Source: Syntrophales bacterium (GTDB lineage Bacteria > Desulfobacterota > Syntrophia > Syntrophales > UBA8958). From it: a DNA stretch of 64,000 nt. Under the pieces are notes generated by a model. That model had not been told where the DNA came from. It did no database searches and saw nothing but the letters and a program-made list of their open reading frames with translations. Shown here piece by piece: positions 39,068 to 52,797 of the stretch. Every line of letters starts with the position of its first letter. Within the stretch, counting starts at the first letter, position 1. Made by a program: the position numbers and the translations under genes. Location: assembly GCA_035358955.1 (NCBI GenBank), contig DAORXN010000007.1, forward strand, positions 27,174 to 91,173, written 5' to 3'.

Positions 39068-39550
39068 TCAATCCCCGTTATCGACAAAGATTTCTACAAT
39101 TTGGAATTCCCTTATGCCCCCCGGGGTTTGTACCTGGATTTCGTCTCCCACCTTGTGGCCTATGAGGGCCTTCCCTATGGGAGAGGTCACGGATATCATG
39201 TTGTTTCCAATATCCGATTCGAGGGGGCCCACGAGTTTGTAAGTAATGTCCTGCCCTGTGTTGAGGTCCGTAATGACCACCGAAGCGCCGAAGACGACAT
39301 GGTCTGTTTTTATATTGGTTACCTCGATAATGTCTGACGAGGCCAGCTTACTTTCCAATTCTTGAATACGGCTCTGCAAAAAGGTTTGCCTTTCCTTGGC
39401 CGCTGTGTATTCGGCATTTTCCGATAGGTCTCCGTGGGCCCTCGCGGCCTCAATATCCCGAATGTTCTCCGGGACGGCAACGGATTTCAAGTGATCGAGC
39501 TCCCTCTTAATCTTGAGGAAACCCGCTTTGGTAATAGGAATCTTTGTCAT
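39068..39550 (-). CDS. greA: Transcription elongation factor GreA
   Basis: 160 aa. N-terminal coiled coil with the acidic tip (..RAHGDLSENAEYTAAKE..) and a C-terminal globular domain. Confidence 0.95.
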   Translation of the reverse strand: MTKIPITKAGFLKIKRELDHLKSVAVPENIRDIEAARAHGDLSENAEYTAAKERQTFLQSRIQELESKLASSDIIEVTNIKTDHVVFGASVVITDLNTGQDITYKLVGPLESDIGNNMISVTSPIGKALIGHKVGDEIQVQTPGGIREFQIVEIFVDNGD

Positions 39551-39586
39551 TTCAAAACCACTTCCTTTTGTCTGGAAATTGGTGTT

Positions 39587-39615
39587 AGGCTATTAAATAA
39601 CCGAGTACCTGTCAA
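39587..39615 (-). promoter_or_regulatory. Candidate greA promoter (TTGACA-N17-TAGCCT)
   Basis: Minus-strand TTGACA at 39615-39610 and TAGCCT at 39592-39587. Back-to-back with the ilv promoter -35 across a 17-bp A/T tract. Confidence 0.4.
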
Positions 39616-39632
39616 GAATTAAAAATTTTTTC

Positions 39633-39662
39633 TTGACAAATTGAAGGCCCATCTTCTATAGG
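39633..39662 (+). promoter_or_regulatory. Candidate ilv leader promoter (TTGACA-N18-TATAGG)
   Basis: Consensus -35 at 39633-39638 and a -10-like TATAGG at 39657-39662, about 25 nt upstream of the leader ORF. Confidence 0.45.
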
Positions 39663-39687
39663 GTTTCTTAGCATGGAGATTTAGAAG

Positions 39688-39780
39688 ATGGAAAATCCAG
39701 CGGTCATAGAAAGCTTGGGATTGTTGCTTGGCGTAGTCGTAGTAGTACGTACGGGGACCGCTGCTCCGTGCTCCTCATGA
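39688..39780 (+). CDS. Putative ilv leader peptide (30 aa, Leu/Val-rich)
   Basis: ATG preceded by GGAGA. Translation MENPAVIESLGLLLGVVVVVRTGTAAPCSS has 11 of 30 residues Ile/Leu/Val, including a run of five Val codons and LxLLL. It is followed immediately by terminator hairpins and then ilvB. Confidence 0.65.
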   Translation: MENPAVIESLGLLLGVVVVVRTGTAAPCSS

Positions 39781-39793
39781 GTTAGCAGCCAGA

Positions 39794-39828
39794 GCCGCGG
39801 GCCCCTGAAACCCGCGGCTTTTCATTTT
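39794..39828 (+). terminator. Intrinsic terminator 1 (attenuator candidate)
   Basis: GCCGCGGG-CCCCTGAAA-CCCGCGGC forms a perfect 8-bp GC stem, followed by TTTTCATTTT. Confidence 0.7.
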
Positions 39829-39840
39829 CAAAAATGATAA

Positions 39841-39877
39841 GCCGCAGTCGGAATGAGACTTGCGGCTTTTTAATTTT
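39841..39877 (+). terminator. Intrinsic terminator 2 (tandem, just upstream of the ilvB RBS)
   Basis: GCCGCAGTC-GGAATGA-GAC(T)TGCGGC forms a 9-bp stem with one bulge, followed by TTTTTAATTTT. The ilvB RBS GGGAGG starts about 5 nt later. Confidence 0.65.
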
Positions 39878-39893
39878 CAAGGGAGGTAAGTAA

Positions 39894-41591
39894 ATGAAAC
39901 TAAAGGGTGCACAGATACTGATTCAGGCCTTAAAACAGGAGGGAGTGAAGGTCATATTCGGCTATCCCGGGGGGGCGGTAATTGATATCTACGACGAGCT
40001 CTATCGGGAGAACATAAAACACGTCCTCGTAAGGCACGAACAGGGTGCCGTCCATGCCGCCGATGGGTATGCCCGGGTGACAGGAAAGGTGGGATGTGTC
40101 CTTGTAACCTCCGGGCCCGGGGCTGCCAATACGGTAACAGGCATTGCCACGGCCTATATGGATTCCATCCCCCTCGTCGTCTTCACCGGACAGGTACCTA
40201 CGGCCCTCATCGGTACCGATGCCTTCCAGGAAGTGGATATCGTGGGTATTACTCGCCCGTGCACGAAACACAACTTTCTCGTGAAACGGGTGGAAGACTT
40301 GGGAAAGACGATCCATGAGGCTTTTTACATTGCCCGGACGGGGAGACCAGGGCCCGTGCTGGTGGATTTGCCCAAGGATGTGATGCAAGCAACAGGCGAC
40401 TACGAGCCCGTTTCCTTTCAAGATCATACCCCGAAGGATGTGCCCGTGCCCTCTCAAATATTTTATCTAAAAGACCTCATCGCCCAGTCTAAGCGGCCGG
40501 TACTTTTGACGGGAGGCGGTGTGATTTTAGGACGGGCGTCGGAGGAGTTGAGAAAACTGGCCCGGCGCACCTTGATTCCCGTAACCTCGACCCTCATGGG
40601 CATCGGTGCCTTCCCTGGCTCGGATCCCCTCTGGTTGGGGATGCCCGGTATGCACGGTACTTACTATGCGAATATGGCCATCAGCCACTGCGATCTCCTC
40701 ATTGCCGTTGGGTGCCGATTTGACGATCGTGTCACGGGCAAGGTGGACCACTTTGCCCCGGAAGCCAAGATCGTCCATATCGATATCGATCCTTCCTCCA
40801 TAAATAAAAACGTGATTGCCCACGTACCCATCGTGGGTGATTGCCGAACGATCCTGAAGGCGATAAACGATCGGCTTGAGGGCGATAACTTCACTGTCAG
40901 CGAAACGAATAGACGGGAATGGTTCGAACAGATTGCAGCCTGGAAAAAGGAGAACCCCCTTTCTTACTGCCAAAGCGAGGAGGTGATAAAACCCCAGTTC
41001 GTGGTGGAAAAACTTTACGAACTCACCCAGGGGAAGGCCATCATCACTACGGAGGTCGGACAGAATCAGATGTGGGCGGCCCAGTTTTACCTGTTTGACG
41101 AACCGAACACATTAATCACCTCCGGTGGACTTGGTACGATGGGATATGGATTTCCGGCCGCTATCGGTGCGCAAACAGCCTTTCCCGATCGGTTGGTGAT
41201 CGATATAGCCGGGGATGGGAGTATTCAGATGAACATTCAGGAGATGGCCACGGCCATACAGGAAATGCTACCCGTAAAGATAGTGCTTCTCAACAACGGT
41301 TATCTGGGCATGGTGAGGCAGTGGCAACAGTTATTCTATGACAGGCGCTATTCCCAGACGGACATGACCTATCAGCCTGATTTCGTCAGATTGGCCGAAG
41401 CTTACGGATTCCTGGGGCTCAGGGCGGTAAAGCCGGAAGAAGTGGAATCGGTTTTGAAGAAGGGTTTATCTCACCCGGGACCGGTGCTCATGGATTTCCA
41501 CGTGGCCCGCGAGGAGTGTGTTTACCCCATGGTGCGACCCGGTGCCCCCATCCACGAAATGACATTGGGTGGGCGTGAAATGACCAATTAG
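39894..41591 (+). CDS. ilvB: Acetolactate synthase (acetohydroxyacid synthase) large subunit
   Basis: 565 aa. ThDP-binding motif [13 protein letters not shown]...NNGYLGMV and [16 protein letters not shown]. Confidence 0.95.
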
Positions 41592-41613: not shown

Positions 41614-42096
41614 ATGGAAAAGAAAGAATATACCCTATCGCTTCTCGTGAACAACAAACCCGATGTTCTCGCCCGGGTGGCAGGCGTCTTGGGTGGACGG
41701 GGTTACAACATCGAGACCCTCTGTGTGGATGCGACCTTGGATCCCCGGTACTCGAAGATTGTCTTGACCACCATCCAGGACAAGAGCACGATCAATAAAA
41801 TAGAAAAACAGCTCATCAAGCTACACGACGTGCATAAGGTGACGGATATTACGGAGACGGGTGCCGTTTCCCGGGAGCTTTTGCTTGTTCGTATGAGGTT
41901 GACGGAGCACAACAAGGCTGATATAGCCCTCATTATCAATTCCTATAACGGGCGCGTTGTAACCATGAACGGTGATCACTGCGTTATAGAGATAACGGGT
42001 GAGAAGGCATTTTTAGAGAGGGCAATCGAGAGTTTGAAGCCCCTGGGAATAGAGGATTCGGCCAGAACGGGCATTGTGGCCCTGGAGAGATATTAA
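41614..42096 (+). CDS. ilvN: Acetolactate synthase small (regulatory) subunit
   Basis: 160 aa. N-terminal ACT domain (YTLSLLVNNKPDVLARVAGVLGGRGYNIETL). Confidence 0.9.
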   Translation: MEKKEYTLSLLVNNKPDVLARVAGVLGGRGYNIETLCVDATLDPRYSKIVLTTIQDKSTINKIEKQLIKLHDVHKVTDITETGAVSRELLLVRMRLTEHNKADIALIINSYNGRVVTMNGDHCVIEITGEKAFLERAIESLKPLGIEDSARTGIVALERY

Positions 42097-42120
42097 TTTT
42101 TTTTAAGGAGGAAAGGAATC

Positions 42121-43173
42121 ATGGCAAAACTGAACATAGGAGGGATCGTAGAGGAGGTCATCACGGCCGACGAATTTACCCTGGATAAGGCAAGAGAAGT
42201 GCTTAAGGACGAGATTGTGGCCGTAGTCGGCTACGGTGTTCAGGGGAGAGGGCAGGCACTGAACATGAAGGATAACAGGATTCGCGTGATCGTAGGGGAA
42301 GGTGATTACAATTGGAAAAAGGCGATGGAAGAAGGATTCGTGCCCGGTGAAACCCTTTTTCCTCCCATCGAGGCCGCACGTCGAGGCACCATCGTCATGT
42401 ATCTTCTTAATGACGCCATGCAAAAGGAATACTGGCCAGAGCTCAAACCCACCCTTACGGCCGGGAAAGCCCTCTACTTCTCCCACGGCTTTTCCATCGT
42501 CTACAAGGACCAAACGGGGGTCATACCGCCCCCCGATATCGACGTGATCATGGTGGCTCCTAAGGGAGCGGGAAGGACGGTGAGGGATAACTTCCTGGCG
42601 GGCAGCGGAATCAATTCCAGCTATGCCGTATATCAGGATGCGACGGGACGCGCTTTGGAGAGGACGCTTGCTGTCGGTATTGCCATTGGATCGGGGTATC
42701 TCTTCCCTACCACCTTTGAGAAGGAAGTTTACAGCGACCTCACGGGTGAGAGGGGGGTATTGATGGGGTGTCTTGCCGGAGTGATGGAGGCTCAGTACAA
42801 CGAGCTTAGGCGTCGGGGGCACAGCCCCAGTGAGGCCTTTAATGAAACGGTGGAGGAGTTGACCCAGAGCCTCATGCCCCTGGTGGCGGAAAACGGCATG
42901 GATTGGATGTTCGCCAATTGTAGTACCACGGCTCAAAGGGGTGCCCTCGACTGGCGTCACCGTTTCCGTGCGGCGGTGGAGCCTGTCTTTAGGGAGCTTT
43001 ACGATAGCGTAGCTTCCGGCAAGGAGACGGAAATCGTCCTCAAAGCGGGCAGCGCTCCCAACTACCGCGATGTGCTGAAGAAAGAATTGGAAGAGATGCG
43101 CATGAGTGAAATGTGGCAGGCAGGCGCGGTCTTGAGGGCGTTGAGACCCGAAAGAAGGGCAAAGAAGCAGTAA
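42121..43173 (+). CDS. ilvC: Ketol-acid reductoisomerase
   Basis: 350 aa. NADPH-binding VVGYGVQGRGQALNMKDN and conserved C-terminal knotted-domain motifs. Confidence 0.95.
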   Translation: MAKLNIGGIVEEVITADEFTLDKAREVLKDEIVAVVGYGVQGRGQALNMKDNRIRVIVGEGDYNWKKAMEEGFVPGETLFPPIEAARRGTIVMYLLNDAMQKEYWPELKPTLTAGKALYFSHGFSIVYKDQTGVIPPPDIDVIMVAPKGAGRTVRDNFLAGSGINSSYAVYQDATGRALERTLAVGIAIGSGYLFPTTFEKEVYSDLTGERGVLMGCLAGVMEAQYNELRRRGHSPSEAFNETVEELTQSLMPLVAENGMDWMFANCSTTAQRGALDWRHRFRAAVEPVFRELYDSVASGKETEIVLKAGSAPNYRDVLKKELEEMRMSEMWQAGAVLRALRPERRAKKQ

Positions 43174-43196
43174 GTAAAATAGGGCAAATTTACCAG

Positions 43197-43219
43197 GCCC
43201 CGCCCTTGAAAGGCGGGGC
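43197..43219 (+). other. Intercistronic GC hairpin between ilvC and ilvD
   Basis: GCCCCGCC-CTTGAAA-GGCGGGGC forms a perfect 8-bp stem. It is followed only by a weak T-rich stretch (TCTTACTATTT), so it is more likely an mRNA stabiliser or partial terminator than a full terminator. Confidence 0.35.
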
Positions 43220-43251
43220 TCTTACTATTTCGAGGGAGGGAGGTATTTCCT

Positions 43252-44913
43252 ATGCGCAGCGATTTGATGAAGCAGGGGTTGGAGCGGGCACCCCATCGCT
43301 CCCTGTTCAAGGCGATGGGCTATACGGATGAAGAATTGGAAAGGCCCATTATTGGCGTGGTTAATTCGGCCAACGAAATAATCCCCGGTCACATTCATCT
43401 CAACACCATTGCGGCCGAGGTGAAGGCGGGTATCAGGATGGCAGGGGGCACGCCGGTGGAGTTCTCTGTGATCGGTATCTGTGACGGTATTGCCATGGGG
43501 CATACGGGCATGAAGTATTCTCTGGCGAGCCGTGAACTCATTGCCGATTCCATCGAATCCATGGTCATGGCCCACCCCTTTGATGCCCTCGTCATGATTC
43601 CCAACTGTGACAAGATCATCCCCGGCATGCTCATGGCGGCCATGAGGTTGAACATCCCCACCGTATTTGTGAGCGGTGGCCCCATGCTGGCTGGCAAGTA
43701 TGAAGGGGAAACGATCGACCTCATTTCCGTCTTCGAAGGGGTAGGGGCGGTTAAGGCGGGCAAGATGAGCGAGAAGAAACTGAAGATGATCGAAGATTAC
43801 GCTTGCCCCGGTTGCGGTTCCTGCTCCGGGATGTACACGGCCAATTCCATGAATTGCATGACGGAAGCCTTGGGTTTAGGACTACCCGGCAACGGGACGG
43901 TTCTCGCCGTTTCTGCCGCTCGGAGGCGGATGGCAAAGAAGGCGGGTATGCAGGTCATGACCGTGCTCAAGAAAAACCTCAAGCCCAGGGATATCGCTAC
44001 CCTGCAAGCATTCAAAAATGCCATCGCTGTTGATATGGCTCTCGGTTGCTCGACCAATACCGTTCTTCATCTGCCGGCCATTGCCCATGAGGCGGGCATC
44101 AAGCTGGACCTTGACCTCTTCAATGAAATCAGCGCCCAGGTGCCCAACCTGTGCAAATTGAGCCCAGCGGGGAAGCATCACATAGAGGACCTCGATGCAG
44201 CCGGGGGAATTCAGGCGGTCATGAAGCGCATTTCCACCCTGGGGGTCCTCGATTTGAAAGCCATGACGGTGACCGGGAAAACGGTAGGGGAGAATATAAA
44301 AACGGCCAGGGTCCTGGATGATAACGTGATCAGACCCCTTAATGACCCTTACGGGCAGGAAGGGGGATTGGCCATCCTTCGCGGAAATCTGGCCCCCGAT
44401 GGGGCGGTTGTAAAACAATCGGCCGTTGCGAAGAATATGTTGGTAAATGAAGGACCGGCCCGGGTGTTCGACTCCGAGGAGGAGGCCATCGAGGCCATTT
44501 TAGGGGGCAAGATAAAACCGGGGGATGTGGTGGTCATCCGATACGAGGGGCCTAAAGGTGGGCCCGGGATGAGGGAGATGCTTTCCCCTACCTCTGCCCT
44601 CGCCGGTATGGGATTGGATACGAGTGTGGCTCTTCTGACCGATGGGAGATTCAGTGGGGGTAGCCGGGGGGCCGCCATCGGTCACATCTCGCCGGAGGCG
44701 GCAGAAGGTGGACCCATTGCCCTGGTGAAAGAGGGGGATATAATCGCCATCGATATCCCTAAGAAGCGGATTACCCTGAAGGTATCGGCGGAGGAACTGA
44801 AAAAGCGTAAGAAAGAATTAAAACCCTGGACGCCCAAGATTACTACGGGCTACCTCGCCCGGTATGCCCAGCTCGTGACTTCGGCCAGCACGGGGGCCGT
44901 CTTCAAGGATTAA
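43252..44913 (+). CDS. ilvD: Dihydroxy-acid dehydratase
   Basis: 553 aa. Fe-S ligand regions [12 protein letters not shown] and [16 protein letters not shown], plus the C-terminal [16 protein letters not shown] motif. Confidence 0.95.
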
Positions 44914-47176: not shown

Positions 47177-47366
47177 CCCATCTGTTGGTTCACGAAAGGG
47201 ATATAACGCTTGGGAGGGCCGGTCAAGGGCAAATTTGGTGTATTGACATTTTTCTCGTAGTAATTCATGCTGATAAAAAAATAAGGGTGATGAGGTTCGC
47301 CCGAACCGCCCGCCTTTCGCATGCCGGGCTGATAACCTCTACTTCGTTGAAGGAGGTTTTTAGCCG

Positions 47367-50580: not shown

Positions 50581-50613
50581 AAAAAAAAACTCCTGCCGAT
50601 TTTATTGCAGGAG
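50581..50613 (-). terminator. Intrinsic terminator forming the expression platform of riboswitch copy 1
   Basis: Minus strand: (A)CUCCUGC-AAUAAAAUCG-GCAGGAG(U) followed by U9 (plus-strand A run 50581-50589). The 5' arm is shared with the 3' pseudoknot strand of the aptamer. Confidence 0.75.
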
Positions 50614-50660
50614 TCATCAGCCCTCGCGGGCAATTCTTTGCGGTGAACTCCATCACCTAT
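50605..50660 (-). ncRNA. Fluoride riboswitch (crcB motif), copy 1
   Basis: Minus strand: AGGUGAUGGAGUUCACC-GCAAAGAAUU-GCCC-GCGA-GGGC-UGAUGACUCCUGC. This matches the crcB-motif core as I recall it: a GGnGAUGGnGUUCnCC hairpin, an A-rich joiner, a short GC stem, and a GGCUGAUGAnnCC tail whose CUCC pairs with the loop GGAG. Confidence 0.8.
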
Positions 50661-50667
50661 GTCATTA

Positions 50668-52661: not shown

Positions 52662-52698
52662 GATGACTCCTTTTTGTGCTTAATGATAAGGAGTCATC
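52662..52698 (-). promoter_or_regulatory. Anti-Shine-Dalgarno expression platform of riboswitch copy 2
   Basis: The aptamer tail GAUGACUCCUU (52698-52688) is perfectly complementary over 11 nt to AAGGAGUCAUC (52672-52662), which contains the antiporter SD. A 15-nt loop separates them. Confidence 0.7.
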
Positions 52699-52736
52699 AG
52701 CCAAAAGGCGGTTTAAGAGGTGAACTCCATCACCTT
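52685..52736 (-). ncRNA. Fluoride riboswitch (crcB motif), copy 2
   Basis: Minus strand: AAGGUGAUGGAGUUCACC-UCUUAAACC-GCC-UUUU-GGC-UGAUGACUCCUUAUC. The 5' hairpin and 3' tail are identical to copy 1. The middle stem differs but stays complementary (GCC/GGC versus GCCC/GGGC). Confidence 0.85.
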
Positions 52737-52797
52737 GTCAAAAGTTATTCTTTTCGTACCAGTTGCGCTTTTAACTGTCAAAGGGAATTTGGAGTAA

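Follow-up and report, generated by a model that had tools for sequence, protein, structure and literature searches.

How is the ilvBNCD operon of a Syntrophales bacterium controlled, and why does its leader carry two terminators in series behind a single short ORF? We addressed this by a computational analysis of a stretch of 64,000 nt from this organism (the window). An initial annotation of the same DNA had placed a leader-peptide attenuator with two tandem terminators upstream of the operon, and had proposed that the ribosome-stalling logic of the enterobacterial ilv operons also operates here. That proposal found support in the sequence, as its elements are present in the leader and conserved in relatives. 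The promoter and the operon are arranged as follows, in positions of the window.

39633..39662, + strand: promoter read from the sequence, with the -35 box TTGACA (39633-39638) and a weak -10 box TATAGG (39657-62), separated by an 18-bp gap
39881..41591, + strand: ilvB Shine-Dalgarno GGGAGG (39881-86) and ilvB (39894-41591, ATG at 39894), acetolactate synthase large subunit
41614..44913, + strand: ilvN (41614-42096), ilvC (42121-43173) and ilvD (43252-44913)
44924-48: terminator-like site 3' of ilvD, from the consensus terminator scan

The assignment of the operon as ilvBNCD was borne out, each of the four genes scoring above its curated NCBIfam cut-off; for ilvB, the match to TIGR00118 reached 837.9 bits against a cut-off of 538, and the window IlvB is 100% identical to a Syntrophales MAG protein. 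These genes make the amino acids that the leader would sense. Direct reading also recovered the TTGACA box that had been proposed as the -35 element. Transcription is predicted to start at ~39669, ~35 nt 3' of this conserved box. Among the relatives, the promoter box CTTGACAA lies 111-133 nt 5' of the antiterminator arm in the 10 that were measured and is visible in the other 8, and TATAG-type -10 boxes are present in the close ones. A consensus promoter/terminator scan flagged neither the leader promoter nor the two terminators, because its -10 rule demands a T at position 6, its terminator rule takes loops of 3-8 nt while that of terminator 1 has 9 nt, and the stem of terminator 2 has a bulge. 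As these misses are effects of the rules, they were not counted against the promoter or the terminators. Of 200 shuffles, 198 fold less stably than the leader region (z = -2.88), and a repeat search independently recovered the terminator 1 stem, the direct repeat between the two terminators and the inverted repeat lying between them.

The translated part of the leader contains the following features.

39675..39679, + strand: leader Shine-Dalgarno GGAGA, 8 nt before the ATG at 39688 and also part of region 1
39688..39780, + strand: leader ORF of 30 codons, MENPAVIESLGLLLGVVVVVRTGTAAPCSS, with 11 of 30 residues I/L/V and its stop codon at 39778
39715..39747, + strand: regulatory codon block, with Leu codons at 39715, 39721, 39724 and 39727 and five consecutive Val codons at 39733-47

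The ORF, its ribosome-binding site and its branched-chain content are thus as first described. When the 64-kb window was scanned for short ORFs with a Shine-Dalgarno-like motif and a T-run 3' of them, no other had I/L/V at 7 or more of 8 consecutive residues. The Val run reads GTA GTC GTA GTA GTA, that is, four GTA, one GTC and no GTG. GTG is the commonest Val codon in the genes of the window and is avoided in the leaders: it makes up 5 of the 111 Val codons in 19 leaders, compared with 45% of those in five window genes. Selection of starvation-sensitive isoacceptors is argued for in the accessible part of PMC1183508. The avoidance of GTG in the leaders would fit such a choice.

We observed homologous leader ORFs in 18 relatives, and the order promoter, leader, antiterminator, terminator 1, terminator 2 recurs in these 18 other Syntrophales loci (IlvB 64-92% identical), terminator 2 being lost in one of them, L004. 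The homologue in L165 is a 29-aa gene in a public annotation. None of these relatives retained the hairpins while lacking a branched-chain-rich leader ORF, a combination that the initial annotation had named as evidence against attenuation. More broadly, ILV-rich leader ORFs stand 5' of ilvB in 32 of 77 Thermodesulfobacteriota genomes, against 1 in the reverse-complement control and 1.6 in shuffles.

It could be argued that the product of the ORF is a small hydrophobic (membrane) peptide with a function of its own, that the terminators serve this gene, and that neither is related to ilv control; the peptide is indeed hydrophobic, and its L165 homologue is publicly annotated as a gene. However, only the branched-chain run and an RNA-constrained GTAA(P/R) stretch are kept across relatives, the N- and C-termini being free, and the run itself switches between V-rich, I-rich and mixed L/I/V compositions by clade. 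Moreover, the ORF always lies 5' of ilvB and overlaps the antiterminator of the next terminator. Its distance from the RNA elements is held with single-nucleotide precision: in 17 of 19 loci, 5 nt separate the last branched-chain codon from the antiterminator arm, and in 16 of 19, region 2 starts 22 nt before the leader stop codon. We therefore regard a free-standing peptide gene as very improbable.

The RNA elements around the first terminator are listed below; hairpin energies are predicted values.

39698..39705, + strand: second half of region 1, CAGCGGUC, complementary to GACCGCUG at 39756-63; candidate anti-antiterminator
39751..39769, + strand: tentative mini-hairpin P1 (ACGGGG/CUCCGU), -10.3 kcal/mol, which can self-sequester region 2
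39753..39766, + strand: region 2, antiterminator 5' arm, GGGG-A-CCGC-U-GCUC, inside the leader ORF, 25 nt before its stop codon, and made of blocks invariant in alignments A1 and A2
39792..39805, + strand: region 3, GAGC-C-GCGG-G-CCCC, antiterminator 3' arm and also 5' arm and loop of terminator 1
39794..39828, + strand: terminator 1 (regions 3:4), a predicted perfect 8-bp G+C stem with a 9-nt loop and a tail, -16.4 kcal/mol

Terminator 1 agrees with its first description as a perfect GC hairpin followed by a U-tract: the arms GCCGCGGG (39794-801) and CCCGCGGC (39811-18) precede the tail TTTTCATTTTC (also given as UUUUCAUUUU). An antiterminator pairing had been proposed as well. It is present and conserved, but its 5' arm is 39753-61 and not 39754-62 (GGGGACCGC, pairing with GCGGGCCCC at 39797-805), and the helix is longer than proposed, since GCUC at 39763-66 also pairs with GAGC at 39792-95 to give 4+4+4 bp in total. 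A further suggested pairing, GCUGCU (39760-65) with AGCAGC (39784-89), exists in the window and in L161 but is not conserved, and was rejected as a core element.

The antiterminator and terminator 1 are mutually exclusive, the terminator 5' arm being common to both. In the window the antiterminator hairpin reaches -26.1 kcal/mol, and across the loci it is always the stabler of the two (-22.7 to -35.4 against -13.2 to -19.9 kcal/mol). Over the window and 17 relatives, pairing amounts to 92.7% for the antiterminator and 96.5% for terminator 1, compared with 37-57% when the partners are slid by 1-3 columns. Both helices are mostly invariant, so true covariation is sparse; nevertheless, the loop-closing pair of terminator 1 changes among A-U, U-A and G-C in 18 sequences, and in L005 and L019 the same three positions have changed jointly with both helices still paired.

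To this scheme we add a conserved upstream partner of the antiterminator arm, region 1, as predicted from complementarity. In the window, its second half forms an inverted repeat (I9, 8/8 complementary) that is part of the MFE fold (duplex energy -22.5, z = -2.9), and the leader Shine-Dalgarno pairs with 39764-72 in both the MFE fold and the duplex search. The MFE structure of the untranslated leader is exactly 1:2 plus terminator 1 plus terminator 2. Of 19 loci, 18 have an upstream partner for region 2 (mean z of -1.9), and about half of these reach significance on their own; in its sequence the partner follows the variable flank 3' of region 2, and its position differs between subclades. The mini-hairpin P1 is 78.7% paired across relatives (48-60% with slid partners) and displays no covariation. 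We also considered an anti-Shine-Dalgarno pairing of CUCCU (39771-75) with the ilvB GGGAGG; it appears in the MFE fold but is not kept in relatives, and was set aside.

These elements suggest two mutually exclusive chains of hairpins in the leader RNA, 1:2, 3:4 and 5:6 in the off state and 2:3 and 4:5 in the on state. When amino acids are plentiful, the ribosome would pass the Leu/Val codons, translate over region 2 and reach the stop codon at 39778. Region 2 would then be covered by the ribosome or, in an untranslated leader, paired with region 1 (39670-78 and 39698-705); terminator 1 (39794-39818) would form, and a polymerase escaping it would meet terminator 2 (39840-67). Under starvation, the ribosome would stall in the Leu/Val block, which ends 5 nt before region 2, leaving region 2 free and kept apart from region 1, so that it could pair with region 3 in the 12-bp antiterminator; with this helix formed, terminator 1 could not form. 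The terminator 1 3' arm and U-tract (region 4), once freed, could take region 5 as their partner, which comprises an A-rich stretch and the 5' arm of terminator 2.

What the analysis establishes in silico is that the elements are present, conserved, spaced as described and mutually exclusive. On this basis we think it likely, with good confidence, that a ribosome-mediated leader-peptide attenuator controls ilvBNCD and senses charged tRNA-Val and tRNA-Leu (in relatives, tRNA-Ile); the attenuator model taken apart from the 4:5 step appears very likely. We infer that the leader responds to amino-acid supply and that transcription really ends at either U-tract.

Ilv-leu operons of Firmicutes are controlled by T-box, riboswitch or RNA-binding-protein systems, and a sensor other than the ribosome acting on the terminators should thus be considered here. 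However, with E values of up to 10 admitted, cmscan of 39400-40000 against Rfam 15 gave no match to a T-box, riboswitch or leader family, and a gathering-threshold scan of the whole window found no leader family and, elsewhere in the window, only fluoride riboswitches. The local cmscan matches were chance hits to miRNA, snoRNA and sRNA models (at most 21.5 bits, against gathering scores of at least 40); the best of them is a spurious miRNA-like model that reports the hairpin at 39814..39845 described below. The leader ORF nearly fills the ~125 nt between the predicted start and terminator 1, and there is therefore no room for an aptamer or a specifier domain. In addition, the position of the branched-chain codons relative to the antiterminator is conserved, and only a translating ribosome reads that. 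We consider a non-ribosomal sensor highly improbable.

We examined the effect of ribosome position, a check that the initial annotation had suggested, by folding only the RNA downstream of the ribosome. In an earlier form of the scan, in which pairs across the ribosome were allowed, terminator 1 stayed at ~1.0 at most positions because regions 1 and 2 could close around the ribosome, and this form was dropped. With downstream-only folding, the antiterminator dominates in most relatives when the A site is within or before the branched-chain run, and as soon as region 2 is covered by the front edge of the ribosome, terminator 1 climbs towards 1.0 over one to three codons; the switch is thus placed at the end of the run. 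In the window itself, at the decision point of terminator 1, the equilibrium favours terminator 1 even with a stalled ribosome (P of the antiterminator at most 0.30), because P1 and terminator 1 together roughly equal the antiterminator in stability. The relatives show the switch more clearly than the window, where it is ambiguous at equilibrium.

We then compared the leader with those of other ilvB operons. In other Syntrophales and in Desulfobacterales, the leaders have the same position, the CTTGACAA box, an ILV-rich ORF and one terminator with an overlapping antiterminator. They differ in the terminator stem (CCGTTAyCAGCC...GGTAACGG), in an antiterminator arm that, unlike that of the window type, overlaps the leader stop codon (GGGUGAUGGUUU), and in runs that are often Ile-only. 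A single terminator is found in 31 of these 32 loci; the remaining one, L049, has a weak A+T-rich second call that is probably false. A metagenome scan with the IlvB N-terminus returned, among the matches listed, mostly distant proteins (at most 70% identity), only L082 being of the window type.

The second terminator and the helix that could connect it to the first are as follows.

39840..39877, + strand: terminator 2 (regions 5:6), a predicted 10-bp stem with one bulge and a U-tract, -14.0 kcal/mol
39814..39845, + strand: candidate relay hairpin (regions 4:5), in which GCGGCUUUUCAUUUU pairs with AAAAUGAUAAGCCGC

The second terminator had been noted in front of the ilvB ribosome-binding site, and we find it there within 1 nt of its proposed start; its arms are AGCCGCAGTC (39840-49) and GACTTGCGGCT (39857-67, with one bulged T), followed by the tail TTTTTAATTTT (also given as UUUUUAAUUUU) up to 39877. 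The 3' arms of the two terminators are 48 nt apart. The doubling had been called unusual; it is present, but it is a conserved feature of the clade (18 of 19 loci, the window included). Positions 39854-76, spanning the loop, 3' arm and tail of terminator 2, form a 78% direct repeat of 39806-28, the corresponding parts of terminator 1, and terminator 2 thus looks as if it had been copied from the 3' half of terminator 1. A dispersed repeat was considered as its origin and rejected, as the window has no more than 3 copies of GCGGCTTTT, 0.9 being expected. We also rejected an ORF running from an ATG at 39834 across terminator 2, with its stop abutting the ilvB ATG, as it has no Shine-Dalgarno and its start codon is missing from L163 and L165.

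The 16-nt palindrome described between the terminators, TCATTTTCAAAAATGA, does lie at 39822-37, but it consists of 7+7 arms around a 2-nt centre and is not a perfect 16-mer. It is best explained as the apex of a predicted hairpin between the 3' arm of terminator 1 and the 5' arm of terminator 2. A DNA operator was judged less likely than this RNA role, because the sequence of the palindrome is not conserved whereas the potential to form the hairpin is.

This 4:5 hairpin corresponds to an inverted repeat (I2) of 15 nt with 93% complementarity and has a predicted energy of -17.5 kcal/mol in the window, compared with -14.0 kcal/mol for terminator 2. As it would disfavour terminator 2, one ribosome stall could be relayed to both terminators, and the second checkpoint suspected in the initial annotation would thereby take a concrete form. 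Such a relay is plausible, and we judge its chances to be about even. Somewhat below that we place the fuller proposal of a six-segment relay, kept in this Syntrophales clade, which would have arisen when half a terminator was duplicated and which would submit a single stalling decision of the ribosome to two checks, as in kinetic proofreading. Read-through would then require both that the ribosome is stalled and that the antiterminator persists while polymerase crosses the further ~48 nt. On early release of the ribosome, region 3 would re-pair with region 4, region 5 would be freed and terminator 2 would fire. The basal leak would be very low (the leak of terminator 1 times that of terminator 2), and induced expression would not be lost.

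The main alternative accepts the attenuator but confines regulation to terminator 1; terminator 2 would be a fail-safe duplicate that stops a fixed fraction of polymerases in both states, and the 4:5 helix a by-product of the duplication. The repeat described above is enough to make the terminators cross-complementary. The additional pairs in 4:5 are for the most part U-A or U-G, and the A-tract 5' of the terminator also pairs with the terminator's own U-tract (inverted repeat I1). Both chains of hairpins exist in the sequence, yet the comparative signal for 4:5 is confounded by the U and A tracts. Pairing of the helix reaches 83.4% over 18 sequences, among which C-G/U-A and A-U/U-A exchanges occur, compared with 39-60% for slid partners, and the helix has 14 double-change cells compared with 7.0 in shuffles (2/500); a slide of +3 scores similarly for covariation. 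The slid-register controls are not clean because the helix consists mostly of U-tract and A-tract plus the stem base shared through the duplication.

The energetics and the conservation of terminator 2 bear on the same choice. The 4:5 hairpin is stabler than terminator 2 in 16 of 18 loci, which argues against a simple duplicate, whereas terminator 2 is the stabler in L167 and L168 (the two lie within 1 kcal/mol of each other in L165 and L166). In the ribosome scans, terminator 2 is dominant at every position in L055, L167 and L168, and at all but one in L165, as a fail-safe terminator would be. L004 lives without terminator 2, which is therefore dispensable; this form with one terminator is the one found in Syntrophus aciditrophicus. 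On the other hand, terminator 2 is kept in all the other loci although the flanking GCGGCTTTT(TT) repeats ease its deletion, as L004 suggests. Were it an efficient terminator acting in both states, at 14 nt from the ribosome-binding site, it would also put a ceiling on the induction of an operon whose biosynthetic role is essential.

The pattern of change within terminator 2 also speaks for a second role. Free covariation is seen in its inner stem (17 double-change cells compared with 7.2 in shuffles, 0/500), whereas the outer 5 bp, common to the 4:5 helix, are almost invariant with a few G-U wobbles, as expected if the outer pairs have two partners. Furthermore, non-U breaks in the tail of terminator 1 are matched on the opposite strand of the 4:5 helix: CAU/AUG in the window, CUA/UAG in L163 and UAU/AUA in L082. 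Weighing both sides, we consider the fail-safe reading rather unlikely. A point against the relay is that the inner stem, which lies outside 4:5, could be a toehold from which terminator 2 rapidly displaces the relay helix.

The leader can be placed among known attenuators. With enterobacterial trpL, ivbL-ilvBN, ilvL-ilvGMEDA and leuL it shares a promoter-proximal short ORF rich in end-product codons, predicted overlapping 1:2, 2:3 and 3:4 hairpins of which 3:4 is an intrinsic terminator, and a regulatory logic in which the stop codon is placed so that the terminating ribosome blocks the antiterminator. It differs in belonging to another phylum (Thermodesulfobacteriota, order Syntrophales), with no similarity in sequence or to Rfam models, in having the antiterminator 5' arm wholly inside the ORF and two serial terminators instead of one, and in the ilvBNCD composition of the operon. 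The his operon of Salmonella and E. coli, in the model of Johnston et al. 1980, reportedly uses the chain A:B, C:D, E:F against B:C, D:E. The window would have the same kind of alternating hairpin chain relaying a 5' ribosome stall (1:2, 3:4, 5:6 against 2:3, 4:5). In his, however, only the last hairpin, E:F, terminates, whereas here both 3:4 and 5:6 carry U-tracts and the 4:5 step is predicted.

Tandem-terminator attenuators were represented in the literature searched only by a mention of erm(K) and by the tandem terminators of the rimP leader. As far as the accessible text of PMC4335068 describes it, erm(K) of Bacillus licheniformis is a leader-peptide stalling attenuator with two adjacent Rho-independent terminators; it responds to stalling by macrolide antibiotics and not to starvation, controls a resistance gene, is unrelated in sequence and belongs to another host phylum. 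The window fits this arrangement as an architectural analogy, not as a member of the same family. The ilvBNC operon of Corynebacterium glutamicum, according to the available portions of PMC11857589 and PMC10272879, is likewise a non-enteric ilvB operon with a leader peptide rich in branched-chain amino acids and alternative hairpins (a three-hairpin model, with an ilvB-II uORF motif); it is actinobacterial, unrelated in sequence and has a single terminator. No description of ilvB attenuators in Thermodesulfobacteriota was found in the searchable literature, in which delta-proteobacterial and Syntrophus ilv attenuators were sought.

Attenuation by a leader peptide belongs to the textbook mechanisms, and finding it here is in itself no surprise; the doubled and possibly cross-wired terminator is the one unusual feature of an otherwise textbook-style attenuator. 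The analysis documents a set of unannotated ilvB attenuators, with no Rfam match, across the Syntrophales and Desulfobacterales of the Thermodesulfobacteriota. If the relay works, it would be a natural case in which duplication of half a terminator has tightened an RNA switch without a second sensor, and it would be relevant to the design of low-leak synthetic attenuators. The leader sequence may also serve as a cheap physiological readout of the amino acids that are sensed, Val and Leu here and Ile only in a sister clade, in syntrophs that grow slowly and are difficult subjects for genetics.

All the elements that the initial annotation had listed for a leader-peptide attenuator ahead of ilvBNCD (promoter, ribosome-binding site, 30-codon ORF, two tandem terminators and the ilvB ribosome-binding site) were found in the sequence, and are given below with the neighbouring features.

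Features of the ilv leader and its surroundings (window coordinates; read from the sequence unless a database is named)
39550-39068, - strand: greA, divergent, upstream of the ilv leader (NCBIfam)
39633-38, + strand: -35 box TTGACA
18 bp after TTGACA, + strand: -10 box TATAGG, weak
39675-79, + strand: leader Shine-Dalgarno (SD) GGAGA, 8 nt ahead of the ATG at 39688
39688-39780, + strand: leader ORF of 30 codons, product MENPAVIESLGLLLGVVVVVRTGTAAPCSS
39715-29, + strand: four Leu codons of the leader ORF
39733-47, + strand: five Val codons of the leader ORF
39794-801 / 39811-18, + strand: terminator 1 (T1), perfect 8-bp G+C stem, 9-nt loop, tail UUUUCAUUUU
39840-49 / 39857-67, + strand: terminator 2 (T2), 10-bp stem with one bulge, tail UUUUUAAUUUU
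39881-86, + strand: ilvB ribosome-binding site GGGAGG
39894, + strand: ilvB ATG
47277-47348, + strand: fluoride riboswitch aptamer RF01734 (Rfam)
50601-50666, - strand: fluoride riboswitch aptamer RF01734 (Rfam)
52681-52743, - strand: fluoride riboswitch aptamer RF01734 (Rfam)

Ile, Leu and Val account for 11 of the 30 residues of the leader peptide. When the 64 kb were scanned for short ORFs with both an SD-like motif and a T-run downstream, only this one had at least seven I/L/V in eight consecutive residues; the leader region also gave a better fold than 198 of 200 shuffled sequences. The four downstream genes are ilvB, ilvN, ilvC and ilvD, all exceeding the NCBIfam curated cut-offs. IlvB has a 100% identical counterpart in a Syntrophales MAG, and its best species-representative genomes belong to Syntrophus/Syntrophales (64-76% identity), with Desulfobacterales next. 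An Rfam search of the region at E up to 10 gave no leader, T-box or riboswitch family match. A consensus scan flagged neither the promoter nor the two terminators, but this reflects only the rules it applies to the -10 box, loop length and bulges.

Two inverted repeats overlap the promoter. The first, a perfect 9-bp repeat TGTCAAGAA / TTCTTGACA (39610-39638), consists of two back-to-back TTGACA boxes, one directed toward ilvB and the other toward greA; it may be a divergent promoter pair or a shared operator, and a similar arrangement was seen in L161, one of the ilvB-upstream loci of related genomes. The second, a perfect 10-bp repeat CCATCTTCTA / TAGAAGATGG (39649-39658 / 39682-39691), takes in the promoter spacer, the -10 box and the leader ATG; an RNA role for it is doubtful, because transcription probably starts downstream of its 5' arm. 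Downstream of the operon, the three fluoride aptamers (45.9-53.9 bits; gathering score 34) span 5.5 kb, an unusual local density.

We observed that the leader ORF is conserved among relatives. An I/L/V-rich ORF (ATG start, 12-45 codons, at least six of eight residues I/L/V, within 280 nt before ilvB) was present in 32 of the 77 related genomes whose upstream sequence was long enough, compared with one in the reverse complement and a mean of 1.6 in shuffles. The peptides were of several types: ...VVVV(I)V.(R/P)GTAA(R/P)... in the window type, ...IAIIIIIGIIIPF... where the run is of Ile only, and ...NNLISLILVLVSGIII... in a mixed type from Desulfobacterales. Since conservation is confined to the branched-chain run and the stretch encoding the RNA pairing, the pattern is the signature of a putative regulatory leader, and not of a functional peptide. 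Public gene callers had called the leader region as a protein gene in L165 (497-586, 29 aa) and, as a longer call, in L163 (383-589, 68 aa), neither with a Pfam match; leaders of this sort can reach protein databases as hypothetical proteins.

A second ilvB leader attenuator family, unrelated in sequence to the window type, was seen upstream of ilvB in L008, L011, L013, L022, L056, L063, L085, L099, L101 and about 23 Desulfobacterales loci. Its terminator stem is highly conserved (CCGTTAyCAGCC...GGTAACGG), its antiterminator arm overlaps the leader stop codon (GGGUGAUGGUUU), and one Syntrophales subgroup has Ile-only runs.

The complete window-type architecture is common to 18 other loci (L001-L007, L019, L055, L082 and L161-L168, the last eight obtained via IlvB homologues of 77-92% identity), in the order CTTGACAA promoter, leader ORF, GGGGACyGCnGCU(C), GAGCCGCGGnCCCC...CCGCGGCUUUU and AAGCCGCA...GCGGCUUUUU. 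The spacing is nearly fixed: 17 of 19 loci have 5 nt between the last branched-chain codon and the antiterminator-arm GGGG, and in 16 of the 19 the arm starts 22 nt upstream of the stop codon of the leader. Among the 111 Val codons of the 19 leaders, GTA (59) and GTC (35) exceed GTT (12) and GTG (5), whereas in five window genes GTG is commonest (45%) and GTA makes up 17%. The leaders thus strongly avoid GTG and prefer GTA relative to these five genes, though the relatives' own genomic usage may differ. This avoidance would fit selection for starvation-sensitive isoacceptors, as argued for attenuators in PMC1183508.

We numbered the pairing segments of the leader RNA as regions 1-6 and counted paired cells in an 18-sequence alignment, with partners slid by 1-3 columns as controls.

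Pairing of leader helices in the 18-sequence alignment (helix; cells paired; slid controls)
Antiterminator (2:3); 92.7%; 37-57%
Terminator 1 (3:4); 96.5%; 37-53%
Inter-terminator hairpin (4:5); 83.4%; 39-60%
Terminator 2 (5:6); 82.9%; 33-50%
Local hairpin P1; 78.7%; 48-60%

The antiterminator arm predicted by the initial annotation exists at 39753-61, 1 nt from where it had been placed, and its pairing extends 4 bp further (GCUC 39763-66 / GAGC 39792-95). The antiterminator and T1 are largely invariant, as expected when region 3 must pair in both; at the single variable position, all three partners are altered together in L005 and L019, so that both helices still pair. In every case T1 (-13.2 to -19.9 kcal/mol) is less stable than the antiterminator (-22.7 to -35.4). 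In the window, region 2 is also complementary to GCAUGGAG (39670-77), which contains the leader SD, and to CAGCGGUC (39698-705), early in the ORF, the latter as an 8/8 inverted repeat in the repeat search. Without translation, the minimum free energy fold of the leader consists of exactly 1:2, T1 and T2. Of the 19 loci, 18 have a comparable upstream partner (mean z -1.9; E from -14.7 to -23.4), whose sequence varies in step with the flank 3' of region 2 (window CUCCGUG/GCAUGGAG, L007 GCUCGCA/UGCGAGC, L019 GCUCGGAA/UUCUGAGC). As its position varies among subclades, the 1:2 pairing is probable rather than shown for the class. The mini-hairpin P1 (39751-69, -10.3 kcal/mol) could also sequester region 2; it showed no covariation in the alignment.

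We folded only the RNA 3' of a 29-nt ribosome footprint. For most relatives, the antiterminator dominated with the A site before or inside the branched-chain run, and T1 approached 1.0 within one to three codons after the ribosome front edge reached region 2. The predicted switch was thus clearer in most relatives than in the window, where T1 was still favoured at its decision point (P(antiterminator) at most 0.30, at equilibrium, which disregards the order of synthesis), because P1 plus T1 about equals the antiterminator in stability. The in silico case for the window locus is genuinely weakened by this.

The doubled terminator, initially thought unusual, is a clade feature: a generic terminator finder called two in 17 of 19 window-type loci, in L082 the second is recognisable by eye, and L004 has only the one. 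In the 32 loci bearing leaders of other types the terminator is single; a weak, A+T-rich second call in L049 was taken as false. The inner stem of T2 covaries clearly (17 both-side changes against 7.2 ± 2.0 in shuffles; 0/500), and its outer GCCGC/GCGGC is nearly invariant, with few G-U wobbles. T2 probably arose by duplication, because its loop, 3' arm and tail (39854-76) repeat those of T1 (39806-28) at 78%. L004 (2430-2500, Syntrophus aciditrophicus MAG) has T1 only, and its tail GCGGCTTTTTTATTG equals the T2 tail of its close relative L001 (2386-2500), which suggests loss of T2 through deletion between repeated GCGGCTTTTTT.

The T1 3' arm and U-tract, GCGGCUUUUCAUUUU (39814-28), are 93% complementary to AAAAUGAUAAGCCGC (39831-45), which ends in the T2 5' arm. 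The palindrome noted earlier between the terminators is present, as 7+7 arms around a 2-nt centre, and forms the tip of this 4:5 hairpin (-17.5 kcal/mol; T2, -14.0). Such a hairpin is possible in 18 of 18 two-terminator loci, with spacers of 14-25 nt in the ten measured, and some non-U breaks in the T1 tail are matched by the partner strand (window CAU/AUG, L163 CUA/UAG, L082 UAU/AUA). Double-sided changes numbered 14, against 7.0 in shuffles (reached by 2/500). The hairpin is stabler than T2 in 16 of 18 loci; T2 is stabler in L167 and L168, and the two are roughly equal in L165 and L166. The leader could therefore alternate between an off chain, 1:2, 3:4 and 5:6, and an on chain, 2:3 and 4:5, in which the hairpin would relay the decision at T1 to T2.

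We hold this relay to be plausible though somewhat short of probable, for several reasons. The 4:5 helix is largely U-tract/A-tract pairing plus a stem base shared by descent, so its slid-register controls are not clean; a +3 slide gives a covariation score similar to that of the true register, and the A-rich stretch pairs also with T2's own tail. T2 is not uniformly the weaker helix, its inner stem is left uncovered by 4:5 and could nucleate displacement, and L004 manages without T2. Moreover, in the ribosome scans T2 dominated at every position in L055, L167 and L168 and at all but one in L165, as would suit an unregulated fail-safe terminator with no relay. We consider that alternative somewhat less likely than the relay.

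In enterobacteria, ilv operons are known to be controlled through leader peptides. The his attenuator alternates A:B, C:D and E:F with B:C and D:E; the Syntrophales leader would resemble it in its proposed alternating hairpin chain, but differs in that two of its three off hairpins are terminators. Leader-peptide control of ilv genes is also described in Corynebacterium (PMC11857589, PMC10272879), Staphylococcus (PMC5794164) and actinobacteria generally (PMC1262725), and erm(K), as cited in PMC4335068, is a precedent for two terminators in a single leader-peptide attenuator. Leaders of rimP, too, can carry terminators in tandem (PMC2965389). A delta-proteobacterial regulon comparison (PMC545781) does not mention ilv attenuators, and we found no Syntrophus or delta-proteobacterial ilv leaders in the searchable literature, although older comparative papers may list some.

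The conserved leader ORF, the nearly fixed spacing and the pairing of antiterminator and T1 support ribosome-stalling attenuation, as initially proposed. As judged from sequence, the window element belongs to a very well known class but is itself new and uncatalogued, the tandem-terminator architecture is conserved in the window-type loci, and the relay hairpin is probably present in them. If true, the relay would explain how induced expression escapes being capped by a strong terminator 14 nt ahead of the ilvB ribosome-binding site, and also why the outer T2 pairs are frozen alongside drifting inner pairs.
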